Assembly (NCBI RefSeq): GCF_003334305.1
Contig: NZ_QOWS01000024.1
Length of the DNA: 64,000 nt
Source of the DNA: Escherichia coli
GTDB lineage: Bacteria; Pseudomonadota; Gammaproteobacteria; Enterobacterales; Enterobacteriaceae
Direction: 5' to 3' (one strand)
A model generated the notes under the pieces. That model was given only the letters and a program-made list of their open reading frames with translations. It searched no databases and was not told the DNA's origin. Positions within the stretch are counted from its first letter, which is position 1; every line of letters begins with the position of its first letter. Shown piece by piece: positions 26,219-32,540 of this stretch. A program made the translations under genes and the position numbers.

Positions 26219-26315
26219 TTTCACCGCTCAGTACATGCGTTTACGCTGCGTCGATGCACAGCCTCATCATTTTGCAGTATCCTTAAGATATTCCTTATAT
26301 CTTCAGGAGATCGTC

Positions 26316-27020
26316 ATGGACAGATTCCCACGTTCTGATTCAATCGTACAACCCCGGGCTGGCTTGCAAACTTATATGGCGCAAGTCTATGGCTGGATGA
26401 CCGTTGGCTTGTTGCTGACCGCATTTGTTGCCTGGTATGCGGCTAATTCCGCGGCCGTGATGGAGCTGTTGTTTACTAACCGTGTCTTTTTAATCGGTCT
26501 GATCATCGCGCAATTAGCATTGGTTATTGTGTTATCAGCGATGATTCAAAAGCTGAGCGCAGGTGTAACGACGATGCTCTTTATGCTTTATTCGGCGCTG
26601 ACGGGTCTTACGCTTTCCAGTATATTCATTGTCTATACCGCTGCTTCTATCGCCAGTACTTTCGTCGTTACTGCCGGGATGTTCGGCGCAATGAGCCTGT
26701 ACGGTTACACCACGAAGCGCGATTTAAGTGGCTTTGGCAATATGCTGTTTATGGCGTTAATCGGCATTGTGCTGGCATCGCTGGTCAACTTCTGGCTGAA
26801 AAGCGAAGCATTGATGTGGGCAGTTACCTACATCGGCGTGATTGTCTTTGTCGGATTGACGGCGTATGACACTCAGAAATTGAAAAATATGGGTGAGCAG
26901 ATTGATACCCGCGACACGTCGAACCTGCGCAAATATTCCATTCTTGGCGCGTTAACCTTGTATCTGGACTTCATCAACCTGTTCCTGATGTTGCTGCGAA
27001 TTTTTGGCAACCGCCGTTAA
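26316..27020 (+). CDS. ybhL: YbhL, BAX-inhibitor-1 (TMBIM)-family inner-membrane protein
   Basis: 234 aa from MDRFPRSDSIV; 7 predicted TM segments. Confidence 0.88.
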   Translation: MDRFPRSDSIVQPRAGLQTYMAQVYGWMTVGLLLTAFVAWYAANSAAVMELLFTNRVFLIGLIIAQLALVIVLSAMIQKLSAGVTTMLFMLYSALTGLTLSSIFIVYTAASIASTFVVTAGMFGAMSLYGYTTKRDLSGFGNMLFMALIGIVLASLVNFWLKSEALMWAVTYIGVIVFVGLTAYDTQKLKNMGEQIDTRDTSNLRKYSILGALTLYLDFINLFLMLLRIFGNRR

Positions 27021-27038
27021 TTCTTTTTCACCATCAAT

Positions 27039-27068
27039 ATCCCGGCCATGTGTCGGGATTTTTTTTCT
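27039..27068 (+). terminator. Rho-independent terminator after ybhL
   Basis: Hairpin ATCCCG...CGGGAT followed by T8. Confidence 0.65.
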
Positions 27069-27224
27069 TACTAAAAACGACACTTAACAAGTACCAGGTA
27101 TAAAATACGCCTTATGGCGAGCGGAAGCGTTTTCCGTATCCATAAATACAAAAGTATTTTGTATGCGTGGTTTTAAATTTATTGATGGTGAATATTAATA
27201 TTTTTTCTAAGGACAACTAAAAGA

Positions 27225-27938
27225 ATGGAATCATATTCACAAAACAGCAATAAATTAGATTTTCAGCACGAGACCAGGATATTAAACGGTATATGGCTCA
27301 TTACCGCTTTAGGTTTGGTGGCAACCGCAGGACTGGCCTGGGGAGCTAAGTATCTCGAAATTACGGCAACCAAATATGATTCACCAACAATGTATGTCGC
27401 CATAGGGTTATTATTAGTTTGTATGTATGGCTTAAGTAAGGATATCAACAAGATAAATGCCGTCATCGCAGGCGTAATATATCTGTTTTTACTCTCTTTG
27501 GTGGCGATTGTCGTTGCAAGTTTAGCTCCTGTACCTGCCATTATCGTCGTGTTCAGCACTGCGGGCGCGATGTTTTTAATCAGTATGCTGGCCGGTTTAT
27601 TATTTAATGTTGATCCTGGTTCTCACCGTTTTATCATTATGATGACGTTGACAGGTTTGGCCCTGGTGATCATCATGAATGCCGCATTAATGAGTGAACG
27701 ACCCGTTTGGGTAATAAGTTGCTTAATGATTGTGTTATGGTCAGGCATTATCTCGCATGGACGAAATAAGCTCCTTGAATTGGCTGGGAAATGCCATAGT
27801 GAAGAGTTGTGGAGTCCGGTTCGTTGCGCTGTTACAGGTGCATTAACACTCTATTACTATTTTATCGGCTTCTTTGGGATACTTGCCGCGATAGCTATAA
27901 CGCTTGTCTGGCAAAGGCATACGCGTTTTTTTCATTAG
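27225..27938 (+). CDS. ybhM: YbhM, BAX-inhibitor-1-family inner-membrane protein (paralog of YbhL)
   Basis: 237 aa hydrophobic ORF. Confidence 0.85.
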   Translation: MESYSQNSNKLDFQHETRILNGIWLITALGLVATAGLAWGAKYLEITATKYDSPTMYVAIGLLLVCMYGLSKDINKINAVIAGVIYLFLLSLVAIVVASLAPVPAIIVVFSTAGAMFLISMLAGLLFNVDPGSHRFIIMMTLTGLALVIIMNAALMSERPVWVISCLMIVLWSGIISHGRNKLLELAGKCHSEELWSPVRCAVTGALTLYYYFIGFFGILAAIAITLVWQRHTRFFH

Positions 27939-27973
27939 TCGTAAATGCAGATACTAAAGAACTTAACTAAACT

Positions 27974-28930
27974 TCACATCGCCGCTTCATTTTTCGCCCG
28001 TAGCTTCTTCGCCTGGCTTTCCAGTAGCAGGTAACAGATCAGCGCCAGCAGCAGCGGGATAAAGTAATACAGGACGCGATAAGCGAGTAGGGCGGCGATA
28101 ATTGTGCCTTTGGATGTATGCTCCCCAGCCAGTAGCGCGATAAACACCGCTTCCAGCACACCGATCCCCGCCGGAATATGCACGATGACGCCAGCAATAC
28201 TACTAACCAGTAACACGCCCAGTACAAAGAAATAGTTCACGCTTTGACCAAGTAACAGCCAGATAATCGCCCCCATTACCATCCAGTTAACGCTGGAAAT
28301 CAGCATCTGAGCGAGGGCGAATTTCCATGAAGGCAGCACCAGTTTTTGCCCTTTGATGGTCATATGGCGGTGCTTCGCGAAAGCGCAAAACCACAAATAA
28401 ACCGCGATAATCATCAGTAAGCCAATGCCGAGAATACGCAGCGTAGTTTGATCGACATACCAGTGATCCGGCAACTCCACCACGCCTGCGGTAAAGATAA
28501 TCCCTGCCAGTAAAATATAGCCCAGCCAGTTGGTGGTAATACTGAGCGAGAAAATCCGCGTAATAGTGCTGCCCGGTAACCCTAGTCGGGAGTACAAACG
28601 ATAGCGCATACCAATGCCGCCGACCCAGGTACTGAGCGTCAGGTTGAAGGCGTAGCAGATAAACGACACCAGCATCACCTGGCGCTTCGCCAGTTTGTGA
28701 CCGCAGTAAAAGCGGGCGAGCAGGTCATAGCAGCCGTAAATCAGATAGCTGACGACCACCAGCCCGACCGCACTAAGCAGCGCAACGCGATTGTAGTCGC
28801 GGATGACCTTCCAGACCTCTTCCCAGTCCACTTTTTTGGCGTAGACCACCAGCAACACAATCACCGCGATAAAAAACAGCCAGGTGAGGATCTTCTTTGC
28901 TAAGCGCCAGCGCGGGTGTGATTTACTCAT
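27974..28930 (-). CDS. ybhN: YbhN, inner-membrane protein (UPF0104 / LPG-synthase-TM-like)
   Basis: 318 aa polytopic ORF; last gene of ybhP-clsB-ybhN. Confidence 0.88.
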   Translation of the reverse strand: MSKSHPRWRLAKKILTWLFFIAVIVLLVVYAKKVDWEEVWKVIRDYNRVALLSAVGLVVVSYLIYGCYDLLARFYCGHKLAKRQVMLVSFICYAFNLTLSTWVGGIGMRYRLYSRLGLPGSTITRIFSLSITTNWLGYILLAGIIFTAGVVELPDHWYVDQTTLRILGIGLLMIIAVYLWFCAFAKHRHMTIKGQKLVLPSWKFALAQMLISSVNWMVMGAIIWLLLGQSVNYFFVLGVLLVSSIAGVIVHIPAGIGVLEAVFIALLAGEHTSKGTIIAALLAYRVLYYFIPLLLALICYLLLESQAKKLRAKNEAAM

Positions 28931-30171
28931 CAGGGTTTTACCCCCGTGTTTTCAGTTTCTACCCGATCCTGCGTTTCCATTGTCGGTTGTGCGGGCGGAT
29001 CAACCTGCGCCAGACGTGGTGTGTGTGCCGGAAGCCAGCCAACCAGCGCCGGGAAGTGGCGTAAAAAGTGGAACGCCAGCACGCTTTTGGTCAGGTTCCA
29101 CCAGGTGCGTTTCGGCAGCATGGTCTCATCGACCTGCTGACAATCTGCGGCAATAATGCCGTTCAGATTATCGCGCAGCGTCTGGTTAAAATGACGATCG
29201 TGGATGATGACATTTGCTTCGAGATTCAGTGACAAACTGAGCGGATCGAGATTACTGGACCCTACTGTCGCCCAGTGATCGTCCATCAATGCCACTTTGC
29301 CGTGGAGCGGGCGGCGGCGGTACTCAAATACCTGAACGCCGCCTTTAACCAGATAGTTATACAGCAAGCGCGCACCGACTCTGACAATCGGCATATCCGG
29401 TTCGCCCTGAATGATCAGTTTGATCCGCACCCCGCGCCGTGCCGCTTTACGCAAGGCGTGTAAAAATCGATAGCCGGGGAAGAAGTAGGCGTTGGCGATA
29501 ATGACTTCTCGCCGCGCCTGAGTGAGCATTTTCAGATAGTGACGTTCAATATCATCGCGATGTTCTTCGTTATCGCGCCAGACCAGCAATACCTGCGCTT
29601 CTCCCGGCTGGCGGTTCTCTTCCGCTTTGTGATGACGTCGCCACCAGCGTCGTGCCGCGCTCTGTCCAGGCAGGTTTTCCAGCTCAAACTGGAGAATATC
29701 TTCGACAATCGGCCCTTCAAGGCGTACCGCGTAATCCTGTTTAGCCTCTGGACCGTAGCTGGACATATGCTCGGCGGAGTAATTCAGCCCGCCAATAAAG
29801 GCGATACGCGCGTCGATCACCACAATTTTGCGATGCATCCGGCGAAACACATTGGTGCGCATACCAAAAAGGCGAGGGCGGGGATCGTAGTAGCGAAATA
29901 CCACGCCAGCTGCCGTCAGTTCATTGACAAACTCATCGCTGAGATCCGGCGAACCGTAGCCATCCAGCAAGACTTCCGCTTTAACCCCGCGTTGCGCTGC
30001 TGCCAGTAGTGCCGCATGCAGCTGTTTGCCGACGTCATCCTCAAACCAGATAAACGTTTCAAGAATGATGCGTTCTTGTGCCTCGCCAATCGCCTTAAAC
30101 ACCGCGGGATAATATTGCTCGCCGTTTTCCAGCAACTGGATCTTATTGCCTTCGCGCCAGCTACATTTCAT
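28930..30171 (-). CDS. clsB: ClsB, cardiolipin synthase B (phospholipase D family)
   Basis: 413 aa; two HxK-type PLD motifs (HRKIVVID..., HGKVALMDD...). Confidence 0.92.
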
Positions 30172-30929
30172 AAATGAATCTCCGCACTTAAAGGGGCATG
30201 ATCAGAAAGGTGTCGCCATGTCCGCAGCGGCAACGCGGTTGGCGCGCTGGCGCTGGCATTTTTGACGTAGATCCTGTCCAGTCGTAGTAGAGGAAATTGC
30301 ACCGGAAACGTGCGCGCCGGGCGTCCGTGGGCGCGGGTAAAAATCTCATCCAGTCCGGCCTGCACTTTTAACGGATGATTAGCTTTTTGCCGCCAGTCAT
30401 TGAAATCACCCGCCACCAATACCGGTTCGCCGTCCGGTAGCTCATTCACCCATTCGGCGAGCATCGCAAGCTGCGCCTGACGGTGCGCCTCACGCAGGCC
30501 CAGATGTACGCACATCACATGAATCGCTTTTCCGGTCATCGGTGGCACAATGCGGCAGTAGAGCACGCCGCGCTTTTCCGCACCATCGACCGAAACATCG
30601 CGATTCTCATAATGTTCAATGGGATAACGCGACAGTACGGCGTTGCCGTGATGCCCTTCCGGGTATACGGCATTGCGACCGTAGGCAAAATCGCTCCACA
30701 TCGTGTCGGCGAGAAACTCGTAGTGCGAGGTATCGGGCCAGTTTTCCACATGCAGCGGATGAACTTCGTGCGCGCCCATCACTTCCTGCAGGCAAACAAT
30801 ATCGGCGCTGACGGTACGCACCGCGTCGCGAAGTTCCGGCAAAATGAAGCGTCGGTTAAACGCGGTAAAACCTTTGTGAATGTTGATGGTGAGCACCTTG
30901 AACGAAAATTGTTGTGTTTGATCGGGCAT
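30168..30929 (-). CDS. ybhP: YbhP, endonuclease/exonuclease/phosphatase-family protein
   Basis: 253 aa; 4-bp overlap with clsB start. Confidence 0.88.
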
Positions 30930-31061
30930 AATTTTCCTGTCTTTGCCTCTTATCTCATTGAAATAGTGTAGTCGGCGTCACAAAAAGGTGCGGTCTTACG
31001 GAATTTTCCGTAAAGTTCGGTACTCTGAGTAAGTAGAGATAAATTCTTCAGGAGAGAAGCC

Positions 31062-31472
31062 ATGAAGTGGCAACAACGTGTTCGTGTCGCAACTGGTCTA
31101 AGTTGCTGGCAGATTATGTTGCATTTACTGGTAGTGGCGCTGCTGGTGGTGGGCTGGATGAGTAAGACTCTGGTTCACGTCGGCGTGGGATTATGCGCAC
31201 TGTATTGTGTCACGGTAGTGATGATGTTGGTGTTTCAGCGCCACCCCGAGCAACGCTGGCGTGAGGTGGCAGACGTGCTGGAAGAGCTGACCACGACCTG
31301 GTATTTTGGCGCAGCGCTGATTGTGCTGTGGCTGTTGTCCCGTGTACTGGAAAACAACTTTTTGCTGGCAATTGCAGGGCTGGCAATCCTTGCCGGCCCG
31401 GCGGTAGTTTCTTTGCTGGCGAAAGATAAGAAGTTACATCACCTTACGTCTAAACATCGCGTACGCCGCTGA
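31062..31472 (+). CDS. ybhQ: YbhQ, small inner-membrane protein
   Basis: 136 aa hydrophobic ORF; 3' end overlaps convergent ybhR. Confidence 0.8.
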
Positions 31473-32540
31473 CCCTGTCGTGGCCGTTATCACCAGTAGC
31501 GGCCACAAACTATTCCACACAATATCCAGACTCGCATCCTTCAAATAAATCTGCTTGGTAATGTCCGTAAAGTGGCGAATAGGGTTAATCCACGTCAGGT
31601 TTTGCAGCCATACTGGCATGTTTTCCACCGGAGAAACGTAACCGGAAAGGAGAATGGCGGGCATCATAAAAACAAACACGCCGATAAACGCCTGCTGTTG
31701 TGTCGAGCAGAGTGATGAAATCAACAGACCGAATCCCACCAGCGATAAACCGTAAATCACCATCGTAAAGTAGAACAGCGCCAGCGATCCGGCGAAGGGG
31801 ATTTGATACGCCCAGATACCAATCGCCAGCACAATGGTGGCCTGGAAGGTGGCGACAATTAACGCCGGTACGGCTTTGCCGATGAAGATCTGCCAGGTGG
31901 TGAGCGGCGAAACCAGTAGCTGATCGAGCGTACCTTGTTCACGTTCGCGGGCGACGGAAAGTGAAGTGACGATCATTACGCCGATAGTGGTGATCATGGC
32001 GATCAGCGACGGCACCACAAACCATTTGTAGTCAAGATTCGGGTTATACCAGTTGCGTACCACCAGCTCGCTGTTGTTAGGTTTCGGTTTTCCTTCCAGC
32101 AGCTCCTGCTGATAATTTTTGACGATCTGTTGCAGGTAGTTGGCGGCAATTTGCGCACTGTTGGAGTTACGCCCGTCGAGGATCAACTGCAACGGCGCGG
32201 TCTGGAAGGTATCCAGTTTGCGCGAGAAGTCAGCCGGGAAACGCACCAGTAGTAACGCCTTTTGTGTGTCGATGGTTGGGCGGATCTCCTGTGGGCTTTT
32301 CAGCAGCAGCACATGAGTAAAGGCGCTGGCGCGGGCAAAACGTTGGGTCAGCTCCACCGAATGCTCGCCGTTATCTTCATCGTAGATGGCGATGGTGGCG
32401 TTAGTCACTTCCAGCGTGGCGGCGAACGGGAACAGAATCACCTGAATAAGCACAGGTAAAATCAGAATCGCGCGGGTTTGCGGTTCGCGCAGCAGCGACT
32501 GCAACTCTTTGCGGATTAACGTCCATAAGCGATGAAACAT
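31434..32540 (-). CDS. ybhR: YbhR, ABC-2-type exporter permease
   Basis: 368 aa polytopic ORF. Confidence 0.9.

Follow-up and report, generated by a model that had tools for sequence, protein, structure and literature searches.

A proposed role in lipid head-group remodelling for the ybhP-clsB-ybhN operon of Escherichia coli

Of the three enterobacterial 'cardiolipin synthases', ClsB is the one about which least is understood. It is required for the trehalose phospholipids, a group of lipids that activate the human innate receptor Mincle and whose production is not predictable from the clsB sequence alone. Its gene is flanked by ybhP and ybhN, which raises the question of what these two partners contribute and whether they act on the same lipids as ClsB. 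The locus was analysed within a 64,000 nt window of an E. coli genome (contig NZ_QOWS01000024.1). The original prediction for it was that an EEP-family protein (YbhP), a PLD-type cardiolipin synthase (ClsB) and a polytopic membrane protein (YbhN) share a function in phospholipid head-group metabolism. The operon itself is already known and is named in at least three papers (PMC9241728; bioRxiv 10.1101/2022.03.11.483950; PMC10100675); as a core, annotated and published operon, it is an ordinary finding of a genome scan. Over this region the sequence matches several E. coli chromosomes at 100% identity; it is found in 5424 of 5426 complete genomes and shows no difference from the clsB operon of the E. 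coli and Salmonella literature. What is added here is comparative: a wider synteny, gene fusions, the replacement of ybhN by DedA-type domains, an embedding in trehalose clusters of some Pseudomonas, and conserved promoter elements.

Gene junctions and the promoter region

The gene boundaries were taken from the open reading frame listing and from direct reading of the minus-strand sequence, and the RefSeq annotation gives the same three genes with identical boundaries; the predicted coordinates and overlaps of 4 bp and 1 bp are thus confirmed. In the minus-strand reading, the ATGA of the junction CATTTATGAAATGT holds both the start codon of clsB (ATG) and the stop codon of ybhP (TGA), with a GGAG Shine-Dalgarno-like element located within ybhP 8 nt 5′ of the overlap, and at the junction CCCTGATGAGT the A of the clsB TGA is also the A of the ybhN ATG. 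Such overlapping junctions are real but not unusual, and moaC/moaD, ybhS/ybhF and ybhF/ybhG, in neighbouring operons of the same window, each overlap by 8 bp. Their conservation is above chance. Among the 72 complete cassettes compared across several orders, with start codons picked heuristically, 44 have a ybhP/clsB overlap of exactly 4 bp and about 44 an overlap of clsB with ybhN, and a 1- or 4-bp clsB/ybhN overlap is present in most Enterobacterales and many other loci. Given the overlaps and their conservation, translational coupling across ATGA and TGATG is plausible and may reasonably be inferred.

Table 1. Features of the ybhP-clsB-ybhN locus, in positions of the window
Feature	Position	Strand	Description
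ybhP	30929-30168	minus	253 aa; soluble EEP-family (endonuclease/exonuclease/phosphatase) metal-dependent phosphoesterase
clsB	30171-28930	minus	413 aa; PLD-superfamily transphosphatidylase (cardiolipin synthase B)
ybhN (pplT)	28930-27974	minus	318 aa; polytopic inner-membrane protein, homologue of MprF flippase domain
ybhP/clsB overlap ATGA, 4 bp	30168-30171	minus	sequence read directly
clsB/ybhN overlap TGATG, 1 bp	28930	minus	sequence read directly
AGGA Shine-Dalgarno element of ybhP	30935-30938	minus	5 nt before ATG; sequence read directly
Candidate sigma-S-type -10 element CTACACT	30965-30971	minus	some 36 nt 5′ of the ybhP start codon
Conserved block TTTGTGAC	30977-30984	minus	just upstream of the -10 element; kept in 14 of the 15 upstream regions in the alignment
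Perfect 7-bp inverted repeat TACGGAA-AA-TTCCGTA	30997-31012	.	ybhP/ybhQ divergent intergenic region

The three genes lie on a common strand with zero intergenic gaps and in a conserved order, and their co-regulation has been published; they almost certainly constitute one operon. A terminator scan detected no terminator-like site above chance expectation between the genes and none 3′ of ybhN. Expression data from the literature describe RpoS-dependent transcription of the operon, with induction under envelope stress. Inhibition of LolCDE induces all three genes, by 17.6/33.1-fold for ybhP, 12.3/24.5-fold for clsB and 4.4/9.1-fold for ybhN (PMC5105897), values that fall from 5′ to 3′ along the operon; NaF co-induces the operon genes with otsBA, treF and osmY (PMC10100675), and an RpoS dependence of 251-fold for ybhP and 7-fold for ybhO/clsB was reported (PMC2907692).

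A generic sigma-70 scan returned no promoter 5′ of ybhP, its matches within the genes being at chance level. The candidate -10 element CTACACT is nearly invariant in 14 of the 15 Enterobacterales upstream regions, including those of Pantoea and Erwinia, and it presumably fits the sigma-S consensus CTAYRCT. Conserved in the same alignment is a purine-rich block at the position of the ybhP Shine-Dalgarno element. The inverted repeat occurs once in the window, against a chance expectation of 0.01 matches, and is nearly invariant across Enterobacteriaceae; it is a candidate regulator binding site and may resemble an RcsB box. A ChIP-seq peak in Salmonella suggests a sigma-E promoter in the ybhP/ybhQ intergenic region, and by-eye inspection of the E. 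coli intergenic sequence revealed no convincing match to the sigma-E motif GGAACTT-N16-TCAAA. An Rfam scan of positions 27500-31500 found no RNA family, and the open reading frames on the opposite strand (28884-29156, 29539-30009, 30483-30971 and 30542-30811) were dismissed, as they carry neither annotation nor other support.

Conservation of the cassette and exchange of its parts

Whether the three genes travel together bears directly on a shared function, and the original prediction named the loss of their co-conservation, along with the lack of a lipid phenotype, as what would speak against it. The genes are, however, co-conserved: of 80 loci from Enterobacterales, Pseudomonadales (Pseudomonas/Stutzerimonas), Burkholderiales and Halomonadaceae (Billgrantia), 72 have ybhP, clsB and ybhN side by side in this order. 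Lipid phenotypes have been published for clsB (PMC6446866; PMC9241728). Across the same 80 loci, no other neighbouring gene family is shared between the orders; in Pseudomonas, for example, the cassette is accompanied by a mechanosensitive channel, a helicase, an AraC-family regulator and a PRK10302-like protein. Some Pseudomonas have it inside a trehalose/alpha-glucan gene cluster: in P. oryzihabitans it directly follows malQ-treY-x-glgX, with glgX overlapping ybhP by ATGA, and in Stutzerimonas it is located between glgX and glgB-treS. This linkage occurs in only 5 of the 80 loci, and trehalose/alpha-glucan genes were therefore rejected as a universal neighbour.

The association also extends to fused and distant versions. 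Two proteins, P0220 and P0271, join an EEP and a PLD part in one chain; they share 42% identity, have retained every motif and each bear a C-terminal TM helix. The count of fusions comprises these two only, since P0272, P0274, P0284 and probably P0033 contain stretches that look out of frame and were treated as frameshift or assembly artefacts of adjacent genes. For distant YbhP homologs (36-48% identical), a PLD gene was adjacent or fused in 5 of 11 contexts, in cassettes with a shuffled gene order, and absent from the other six, several of which are very short contigs. Three of the five PLD-linked contexts (L086, L090 and L002) carry a DedA/VTT membrane domain instead of YbhN, in L090 as a PLD::VTT fusion. 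Because DedA/VTT stands in the place of YbhN, the triad of a phosphoesterase, a PLD protein and a translocase-like membrane domain recurs with different parts. DedA/VTT proteins, of the VMP1/TMEM41B scramblase type, are not homologues of YbhN, and the E. coli operon contains no DedA gene.

The three proteins

Pfam and NCBIfam searches, the HKD motifs and hydropathy bore out the identities that had been assigned to the three proteins. ClsB matches the NCBIfam equivalog NF008427 with 751.2 bits (cutoff 281) over residues 1-408 of 413, and it contains two PLDc_2 domains (Pfam) with the HKD motifs (HxKxxxxD) HRKIVVID at H113 and HGKVALMD at H290. It does not match PF13396 (PLDc_N), the N-terminal TM region of ClsA, and a Kyte-Doolittle scan detected no hydrophobic or TM segment; a sequence search against solved structures found nothing. 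According to the literature, ClsB makes cardiolipin, makes PG from PE and glycerol, and is needed for trehalose phospholipids (PMC8027125; PMC6446866; PMC9241728), and it is active alone in vitro. Plasmid-borne clsB alone restored trehalose phospholipids in a clsB mutant, in which the chromosomal ybhP was still present, and these lipids went undetected in several clsB-carrying species (PMC6446866). In Salmonella, cardiolipin was restored by the whole operon cloned as one unit, an effect that the H290A change abolished (PMC9241728). ClsB is very probably a promiscuous transphosphatidylase.

YbhN matches Pfam PF03706 (LPG_synthase_TM; E 4.6e-15) and no other Pfam domain, hence it lacks a synthase domain. 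It covers positions 3-301 of the 841 of the NCBIfam bifunc_MprF model (164 bits), and its residues 15-310 align with residues 40-342 of the N-terminal domain of solved MprF structures (9goe, 9j8q, 7f47 and 7duw; E 3e-22); a hydropathy scan predicts about eight hydrophobic segments in its 318 aa. Two-hybrid assays detected interactions of YbhN with ClsB and with PgpA/B/C, and the ybhN (pplT) mutant exhibited a fitness defect and an unchanged bulk phospholipid pattern on TLC (bioRxiv 10.1101/2022.03.11.483950). By its homology, YbhN is probably a lipid flippase, and we consider that it is somewhat likelier than its opposite that the protein serves as a translocator or membrane partner of ClsB. 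The statement that the roles of YbhP and YbhN are not well defined still holds for YbhP, and for YbhN it holds in part.

YbhP aligns with Pfam PF03372 (Exo_endo_phos; E 3e-23) over residues 14-244, covering model positions 2-225 of 225, and it is confidently assigned the EEP fold, a four-layer alpha/beta sandwich. It retains the metal-binding and catalytic residues of the superfamily (N, E, D-x-N, D, D-H), and none of N16, E49, H142, D175, N177, D218, D243 and H244 varies among 50 homologs, of which the most distant have 36% identity. A hydropathy scan detected neither a signal peptide nor a hydrophobic segment, and the protein is slightly acidic (pI 6.6, net charge -3). The fold leaves the substrate unrevealed, and a sequence search against solved structures returned only a marginal match to exonuclease III (E 0.0056), hence no template-based clue. 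A functional link between YbhP and ClsB is well supported, and the predicted joint role in head-group metabolism draws support from the EEP-PLD fusions, from the YbhN-ClsB two-hybrid interaction (bioRxiv 10.1101/2022.03.11.483950) and from the co-induction (PMC5105897). YbhP itself probably acts in the ClsB pathway.

A proposed pathway and its alternatives

On balance, we regard it as reasonably likely that this RpoS-dependent, stress-induced operon encodes a three-part lipid head-group remodelling module, with YbhP on the same pathway. One promoter upstream of ybhP would drive all three genes, and their translation would probably be coupled. ClsB, having no TM segment, would work at the cytoplasmic face of the inner membrane, an orientation that is inferred, and there would take a phosphatidyl group from PG or PE and pass it to an acceptor alcohol, as the reactions shown in the literature indicate: PG to give cardiolipin, glycerol to give PG, and trehalose to give phosphatidyl- and diphosphatidyl-trehalose. 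YbhN, as a putative stand-alone MprF flippase domain that binds ClsB according to homology and the two-hybrid data, may move the bulky-headed product to the outer leaflet, so that ClsB and YbhN would form a split version of the synthase-plus-flippase arrangement of MprF. YbhP is predicted to be a soluble Mg2+-dependent EEP phosphoesterase of the same pathway, with its catalytic residues intact. Our preferred proposal for its chemistry is that it would hydrolyse a head-group phosphoester of a ClsB substrate or product, which would give direction to an otherwise freely reversible PLD exchange. Where a phosphorylated alcohol such as trehalose-6-phosphate or glycerol-3-phosphate serves as acceptor, for example, it might strip off the terminal phosphate, in the way that Pgp phosphatases act after PgsA. 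That YbhP is a head-group monoesterase specifically is a tentative suggestion, with the odds rather against it; one point against this version is that diesterases make up most of the characterised EEP enzymes.

Known systems offer several points of comparison. MprF likewise pairs a cytoplasmic head-group-modifying enzyme with a PF03706 flippase domain, to which YbhN aligns over about 300 residues, and the MprF domains are stated to be functional as separate proteins too (bioRxiv 10.1101/2022.03.11.483950). In MprF, however, the modifier is an aminoacyl-tRNA-dependent synthase, whereas here it is a PLD-type transphosphatidylase, on separate polypeptides and with a third, EEP partner; moreover, E. 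coli makes no aminoacyl-PG. In ymdB-clsC, a paralogous stationary-phase PLD-type cardiolipin synthase is encoded just 3′ of the gene for a soluble hydrolase-fold protein with an effect on it (PMC8027125), but YmdB is a macrodomain protein and not an EEP protein, no flippase-like gene is present, and ClsC uses PE and PG. The resemblance to PgsA with PgpA/B/C is by analogy only: once a phosphorylated alcohol has received the phosphatidyl group, the head group is irreversibly dephosphorylated, and this is the logic proposed for YbhP. YbhN is reported to interact with the three Pgp enzymes. PgsA differs in being a CDP-alcohol phosphatidyltransferase that uses CDP-DAG, and the Pgp enzymes are not EEP proteins.

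Other readings of YbhP and YbhN were weighed against the preferred one. YbhP might be a phosphodiesterase resembling phospholipase C or sphingomyelinase, which would cut the glycerol-side phosphodiester of a ClsB product (cardiolipin, phosphatidyltrehalose) or substrate into diacylglycerol and a phosphorylated head group, and so serve turnover, editing or level control. We consider this unlikely. The identity of YbhP to sphingomyelinases is about 21%, and TDP2 and uncharacterised EEP proteins score equally well or better; to neutral sphingomyelinases and inositol polyphosphate 5-phosphatases taken together it is 15-23%, with no subfamily-specific signature, and YbhP, a smaller protein, has none of their membrane-binding or accessory regions. 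The lack of a signal peptide or hydrophobic segment also argues against this reading, and a synthase coupled or fused to its antagonist is less expected than two consecutive steps. Still less probable is that YbhP is an accessory factor raising the amount or activity of ClsB without lipid catalysis, and YbhN mainly an anchor or recruiter for the TM-less ClsB. clsC clones that include the adjacent ymdB do show higher ClsC activity (PMC8027125), ClsB has no TM segment and interacts with YbhN in a two-hybrid assay, and the C-terminal TM helix of the natural EEP-PLD fusions suggests that tethering to the membrane matters. The invariance of the eight EEP catalytic residues nevertheless argues for a kept enzymatic activity of YbhP, and for YbhN, the whole-length homology to a domain whose structures give evidence of lipid translocation and the recurrent replacement by DedA/VTT point to a transport-like role rather than to an anchor.

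YbhP formerly carried the annotation 'predicted DNase'. That it acts as a nuclease or nucleotide phosphatase with no connection to lipids, with only a stationary-phase promoter in common with clsB and ybhN, is very improbable, as the adjacency to a ClsB-type PLD gene is kept across at least four orders while the other neighbours change, genuine EEP-PLD fusions exist, and PLD genes adjoin even homologs of 36-48% identity in a shuffled order; the slight acidity of the protein is weak evidence in the same direction.

Returning to the preferred pathway, obligatory partnership of YbhP and YbhN with ClsB would make strain-to-strain lipid differences explainable. YbhN would then represent a free-standing MprF-type domain whose cargo is defined, a matter relevant to the long-standing problem of bacterial phospholipid flippases, and the many bacterial EEP proteins that are so far uncharacterised would acquire a function related to lipids. 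A further and speculative extension, which we rate as doubtful, is that the EEP, PLD and translocase triad could be a modular cassette to 'transfer, trim, flip' unusual or bulky head groups under stress, with PplT/YbhN and DedA/VTT being interchangeable and YbhP performing the committed step on a phosphorylated product of ClsB, such as phosphatidyl-trehalose-6'-phosphate derived from trehalose-6-phosphate. If true, it would explain why clsB alone fails to predict the strains that produce Mincle-activating trehalose phospholipids.

Gene layout, products and published knowledge of the operon

The ORF list and the minus-strand sequence placed ybhP, clsB and ybhN exactly at the coordinates of the original prediction, and the two claimed overlaps, of 4 bp and 1 bp, were seen in the junction sequences. 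At the ybhP/clsB junction, CATTTATGAAATGT, an ATGA is common to the clsB ATG and the ybhP TGA, and the 1-bp overlap lies in the clsB/ybhN junction, CCCTGATGAGT. Shine-Dalgarno-like motifs were found within the preceding genes, GGAG 8 nt upstream of the clsB ATG and GGGGG 10 nt upstream of the ybhN ATG. Several E. coli chromosomes match the 2956-bp stretch of the trio at 100% identity, and 5424 of the 5426 complete E. coli genomes contain it; the window is thus chromosomal E. coli DNA. The RefSeq annotation gives the same three genes, with moaABCDE, ybhL and ybhM to one side of them and ybhQ and ybhRSFG-cecR to the other. ybhL and ybhM are tandem Bax inhibitor-1/YccA family paralogs convergent to ybhN; the ybhM and ybhN stop codons are just 35 bp apart, and no recognisable terminator hairpin lies there.

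Features in the window (the three genes from the six-frame ORF list and the minus-strand sequence)
Feature	Coordinates	Strand	Length
ybhP	30929..30168	minus	253 aa
clsB	30171..28930	minus	413 aa
ybhN	28930..27974	minus	318 aa
ybhL and ybhM	26235-27938		
Upstream block of ybhP	30965-30984		
CTACACT	30971..30965		
Inverted repeat TACGGAA-AA-TTCCGTA	31012..30997		7-bp arms
ybhQ/ybhR 3′-end overlap	31434-31472	plus/minus	39 bp

Pfam and NCBIfam matches bore out the predicted identities of the three products, an EEP-family YbhP, a PLD-type ClsB and a polytopic YbhN. YbhP matches the Pfam EEP domain along its full length (E 3e-23) and has no hydrophobic segment in the whole protein. Its AlphaFold2 model is very confident (pLDDT 96.3), and in an alignment of 50 homologs with identities down to 36%, the EEP catalytic and metal-binding residues N16, E49, H142, D175, N177, D218, D243 and H244 are all kept. 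ClsB exceeds the cutoff of the NCBIfam ClsB equivalog (751 vs 281 bits) and carries two PLD domains with HKD motifs at H113 and H290; domain and hydrophobicity scans detected neither a transmembrane segment nor the PLDc_N region of ClsA. YbhN matches Pfam LPG_synthase_TM, has about eight hydrophobic stretches, and aligns over about 300 residues to the N-terminal membrane (flippase) domain of MprF (positions 3-301 of 841 in the NCBIfam model; E 3e-22 to solved MprF structures). It would be a stand-alone counterpart of this flippase domain, in an arrangement like a split MprF.

The predicted interpretation proved correct but not new, as several papers already name the operon; the locus and its operon structure, what ClsB does, and the YbhN flippase hypothesis have all been published. 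In a Salmonella clsABC mutant, the cloned "whole clsB operon" ybhP-clsB-ybhN restored and over-produced cardiolipin, and ClsB H290A was inactive (PMC9241728). ClsB converts two PG to cardiolipin, and PE plus glycerol to PG (review, PMC8027125). YbhN was renamed PplT in a preprint that noted the operon in Enterobacteriaceae and found ClsB and PgpA/B/C as two-hybrid partners; the ybhN mutant showed defects in late-log growth and in competition, and its lipid pattern on TLC did not change (bioRxiv 10.1101/2022.03.11.483950). Our literature search found no paper ascribing a function to YbhP; nor were the order-wide conservation of the cassette, genuine EEP-PLD fusions, DedA replacement, embedding in trehalose clusters and a conserved palindrome, all described below, found in the literature searched. 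These comparative additions leave the classification as a known operon, and sharpen the testable question of what YbhP does.

Conservation of the trio and its variants

YbhP was searched against 1.84 billion representative proteins, with 4417 matches at E<=1e-3, of which 381 reached E<=1e-30. One genome per species was scanned for relatives, and the 80 best loci were kept, from Enterobacterales, Pseudomonas/Stutzerimonas, many Burkholderiales (Bordetella, Variovorax, Acidovorax, Ramlibacter and others) and Billgrantia. In 72 loci, tblastn queries with E. coli YbhP, ClsB and YbhN matched side by side on a single strand, in the order ybhP-clsB-ybhN. Four of the eight exceptions are truncated at the end of a contig or of the stored sequence (L044, L045, L059 and L079), one has a disrupted clsB match (L073), and two are Pseudomonas loci with ybhP only (L077 and L081). 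In the remaining one, an Enterobacteriaceae MAG (L006, 9003-9939), only 38 codons of ybhN remain, ybhM is missing, and ybhL lies directly 3′ of clsB; the flippase-like partner has been lost naturally here. Clustering of all flanking ORFs revealed no fourth gene family common to the orders, so that conservation covers the trio and nothing more.

With start codons picked heuristically and a few obvious mis-calls, the ybhP/clsB overlap is exactly 4 bp in 44 of the 72 complete cassettes, and clsB and ybhN overlap in about 44. Such overlaps are frequent among neighbouring operons in the window by RefSeq annotation, so that the overlap in itself is unremarkable, whereas its conservation is remarkable. 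Given the intact order and the conserved overlaps, the co-conservation whose absence would have counted against the original prediction is present.

Eleven genomic contexts of more distant YbhP homologs (36-48% identity) were compared. A ClsB-like PLD was adjacent or fused in five, as where an EEP gene precedes the PLD gene in L087, and absent in six, four of which are contigs below 4 kb. On one metagenome contig (L002, 3180-5126), the 648-aa protein P0220 is an EEP-PLD fusion in which GDFNDW and SDH are intact, two HKD motifs are present and a TM helix lies at the C-terminus. P0271, a second such protein with 42% identity to P0220, shares the length (645-648 aa), the helix and the intact catalytic motifs, so the fusions form an established lineage. 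Across the contexts compared, the EEP-PLD pair emerges as the evolutionary core. The neighbour of the P0220 gene encodes a VTT(DedA)-pyridine nucleotide oxidoreductase fusion, and a PlsC-type acyltransferase is encoded nearby. A DedA/VTT domain stands in the place of YbhN in two other distant cassettes: in L090 (2724-5741), a 727-aa PLD::VTT fusion is followed by the EEP, and in L086 (4411-7050), a separate DedA/VTT gene overlaps the EEP gene by 4 bp, with the PLD convergent. Judged from these architectures, the recurrent third part is a translocase-like polytopic membrane domain, either PF03706 or DedA/VTT.

L083 and L084 hold a tight row of a CysQ/IMPase-family phosphatase, a PLD and an EEP. 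In L083 (2947-5753), the CysQ/inositol-monophosphatase-family gene overlaps the PLD gene by 4 bp and the YbhP-like EEP follows, a second phosphatase hinting at sugar- or polyol-phosphate chemistry. Three other apparent EEP-PLD fusions, P0272, P0274 and P0284, were discounted for their out-of-frame-looking, arginine/alanine-rich nonsense stretches; these metagenome predictions from high-GC organisms are probably frameshift artefacts merging overlapping neighbour genes, a caution for counts of domain architectures.

Possible role of YbhP in the ClsB pathway

In the best-supported picture, the operon is very probably carried on a single RpoS-dependent transcript, with probable translational coupling of the trio. 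ClsB, a promiscuous transphosphatidylase free of TM segments, would act at the cytoplasmic face, YbhN, its two-hybrid partner, would move the product outward, and YbhP, catalytically intact by its residues, probably serves the ClsB pathway as a soluble phosphoesterase. As established for bacterial cardiolipin synthases (PMC8027125), PLD-type exchange of head groups can run either way and is energetically neutral, and irreversible hydrolysis, transfer of the product to the other leaflet, or both would lend it direction. On this ground we tentatively favour that YbhP trims a head-group phosphoester of a ClsB substrate or product, by analogy with the Pgp phosphatases that follow PgsA.

The main rival, a sphingomyelinase/PLC-like enzyme of phospholipid turnover, is doubtful. 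In the fold comparison of YbhP with solved structures, all at a sequence identity of <=23%, human neutral sphingomyelinase 2 (24.4) and Sphingomyelinase C (21.2) stand among uncharacterised structural-genomics proteins (4ruw, 28.5; 3g6s, 3l1w and 3mpr, 25-26), TDP2 (24.9), Nocturnin (23.8), CNOT6L (23.2), ANGEL2 (21.4), Exonuclease III (20.8) and inositol 5-phosphatases (~17). The invariance of the catalytic residues makes it unlikely that YbhP is a non-catalytic, YmdB-like helper, and the EEP-PLD fusions together with the synteny render a nuclease unrelated to its neighbours highly improbable.

In Salmonella and four of six E. coli strains, 6-phosphatidyltrehalose and 6,6′-diphosphatidyltrehalose need ClsB, and possession of clsB does not predict their production (PMC6446866). 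In the two ybhP-only Pseudomonas loci (L077, 6773-7759; L081, 3834-4661), ybhP lies directly 3′ of malQ-treY-x-glgX (NCBIfam, TreY 1659 bits and GlgX 1081 bits), which suggests that YbhP may function without an adjacent PLD, or that the PLD is encoded elsewhere. In P. oryzihabitans (L016, 4815-10049), the full cassette directly follows malQ-treY-x-glgX with an ATGA overlap of glgX and ybhP, and glgB and treS/maltokinase lie downstream in convergent orientation; in this species the lipid cassette seems to belong to the trehalose/alpha-glucan operon. Two Stutzerimonas loci place the cassette between glgX and glgB-treS, with about 5 kb of unrelated genes intervening. This linkage fits the published need of trehalose phospholipids for ClsB and, being found in 5 of the 80 loci, supports a trehalose link that is not general.

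The region upstream of ybhP

Alignment of 15 Enterobacterales upstream regions revealed a nearly invariant block, TTTGTGAC-N4-6-ACTACACT, including CTACACT, with TTTGTGAC-N6-CTACACT retained even in Pantoea and Erwinia. CTACACT fits the sigma-S -10 consensus and is a candidate -10 element. Between the divergent ybhP and ybhQ, a perfect inverted repeat is nearly invariant in Enterobacteriaceae and occurs once in the window, against 0.01 expected by chance. Its core, GGA-N4-TCC, resembles an RcsB box, and a candidate Rcs site here would agree with the operon being strongly induced, among Rcs-regulated genes, when LolCDE is inhibited.

In published data, LolCDE inhibition raised the three genes jointly with a 5′-to-3′ gradient (ybhP 17.6/33.1x, clsB 12.3/24.5x, ybhN 4.4/9.1x; PMC5105897). 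Expression of ybhPO (ybhO being clsB) was RpoS-dependent, by 251x and 7x (PMC2907692), fluoride stress induced the trio together with otsBA, treF and osmY (PMC10100675), and a sigma-E ChIP peak was found between ybhP and ybhQ in Salmonella (PMC4577112). On the far side of ybhQ, this gene and ybhR are convergent, with overlapping 3′ ends.
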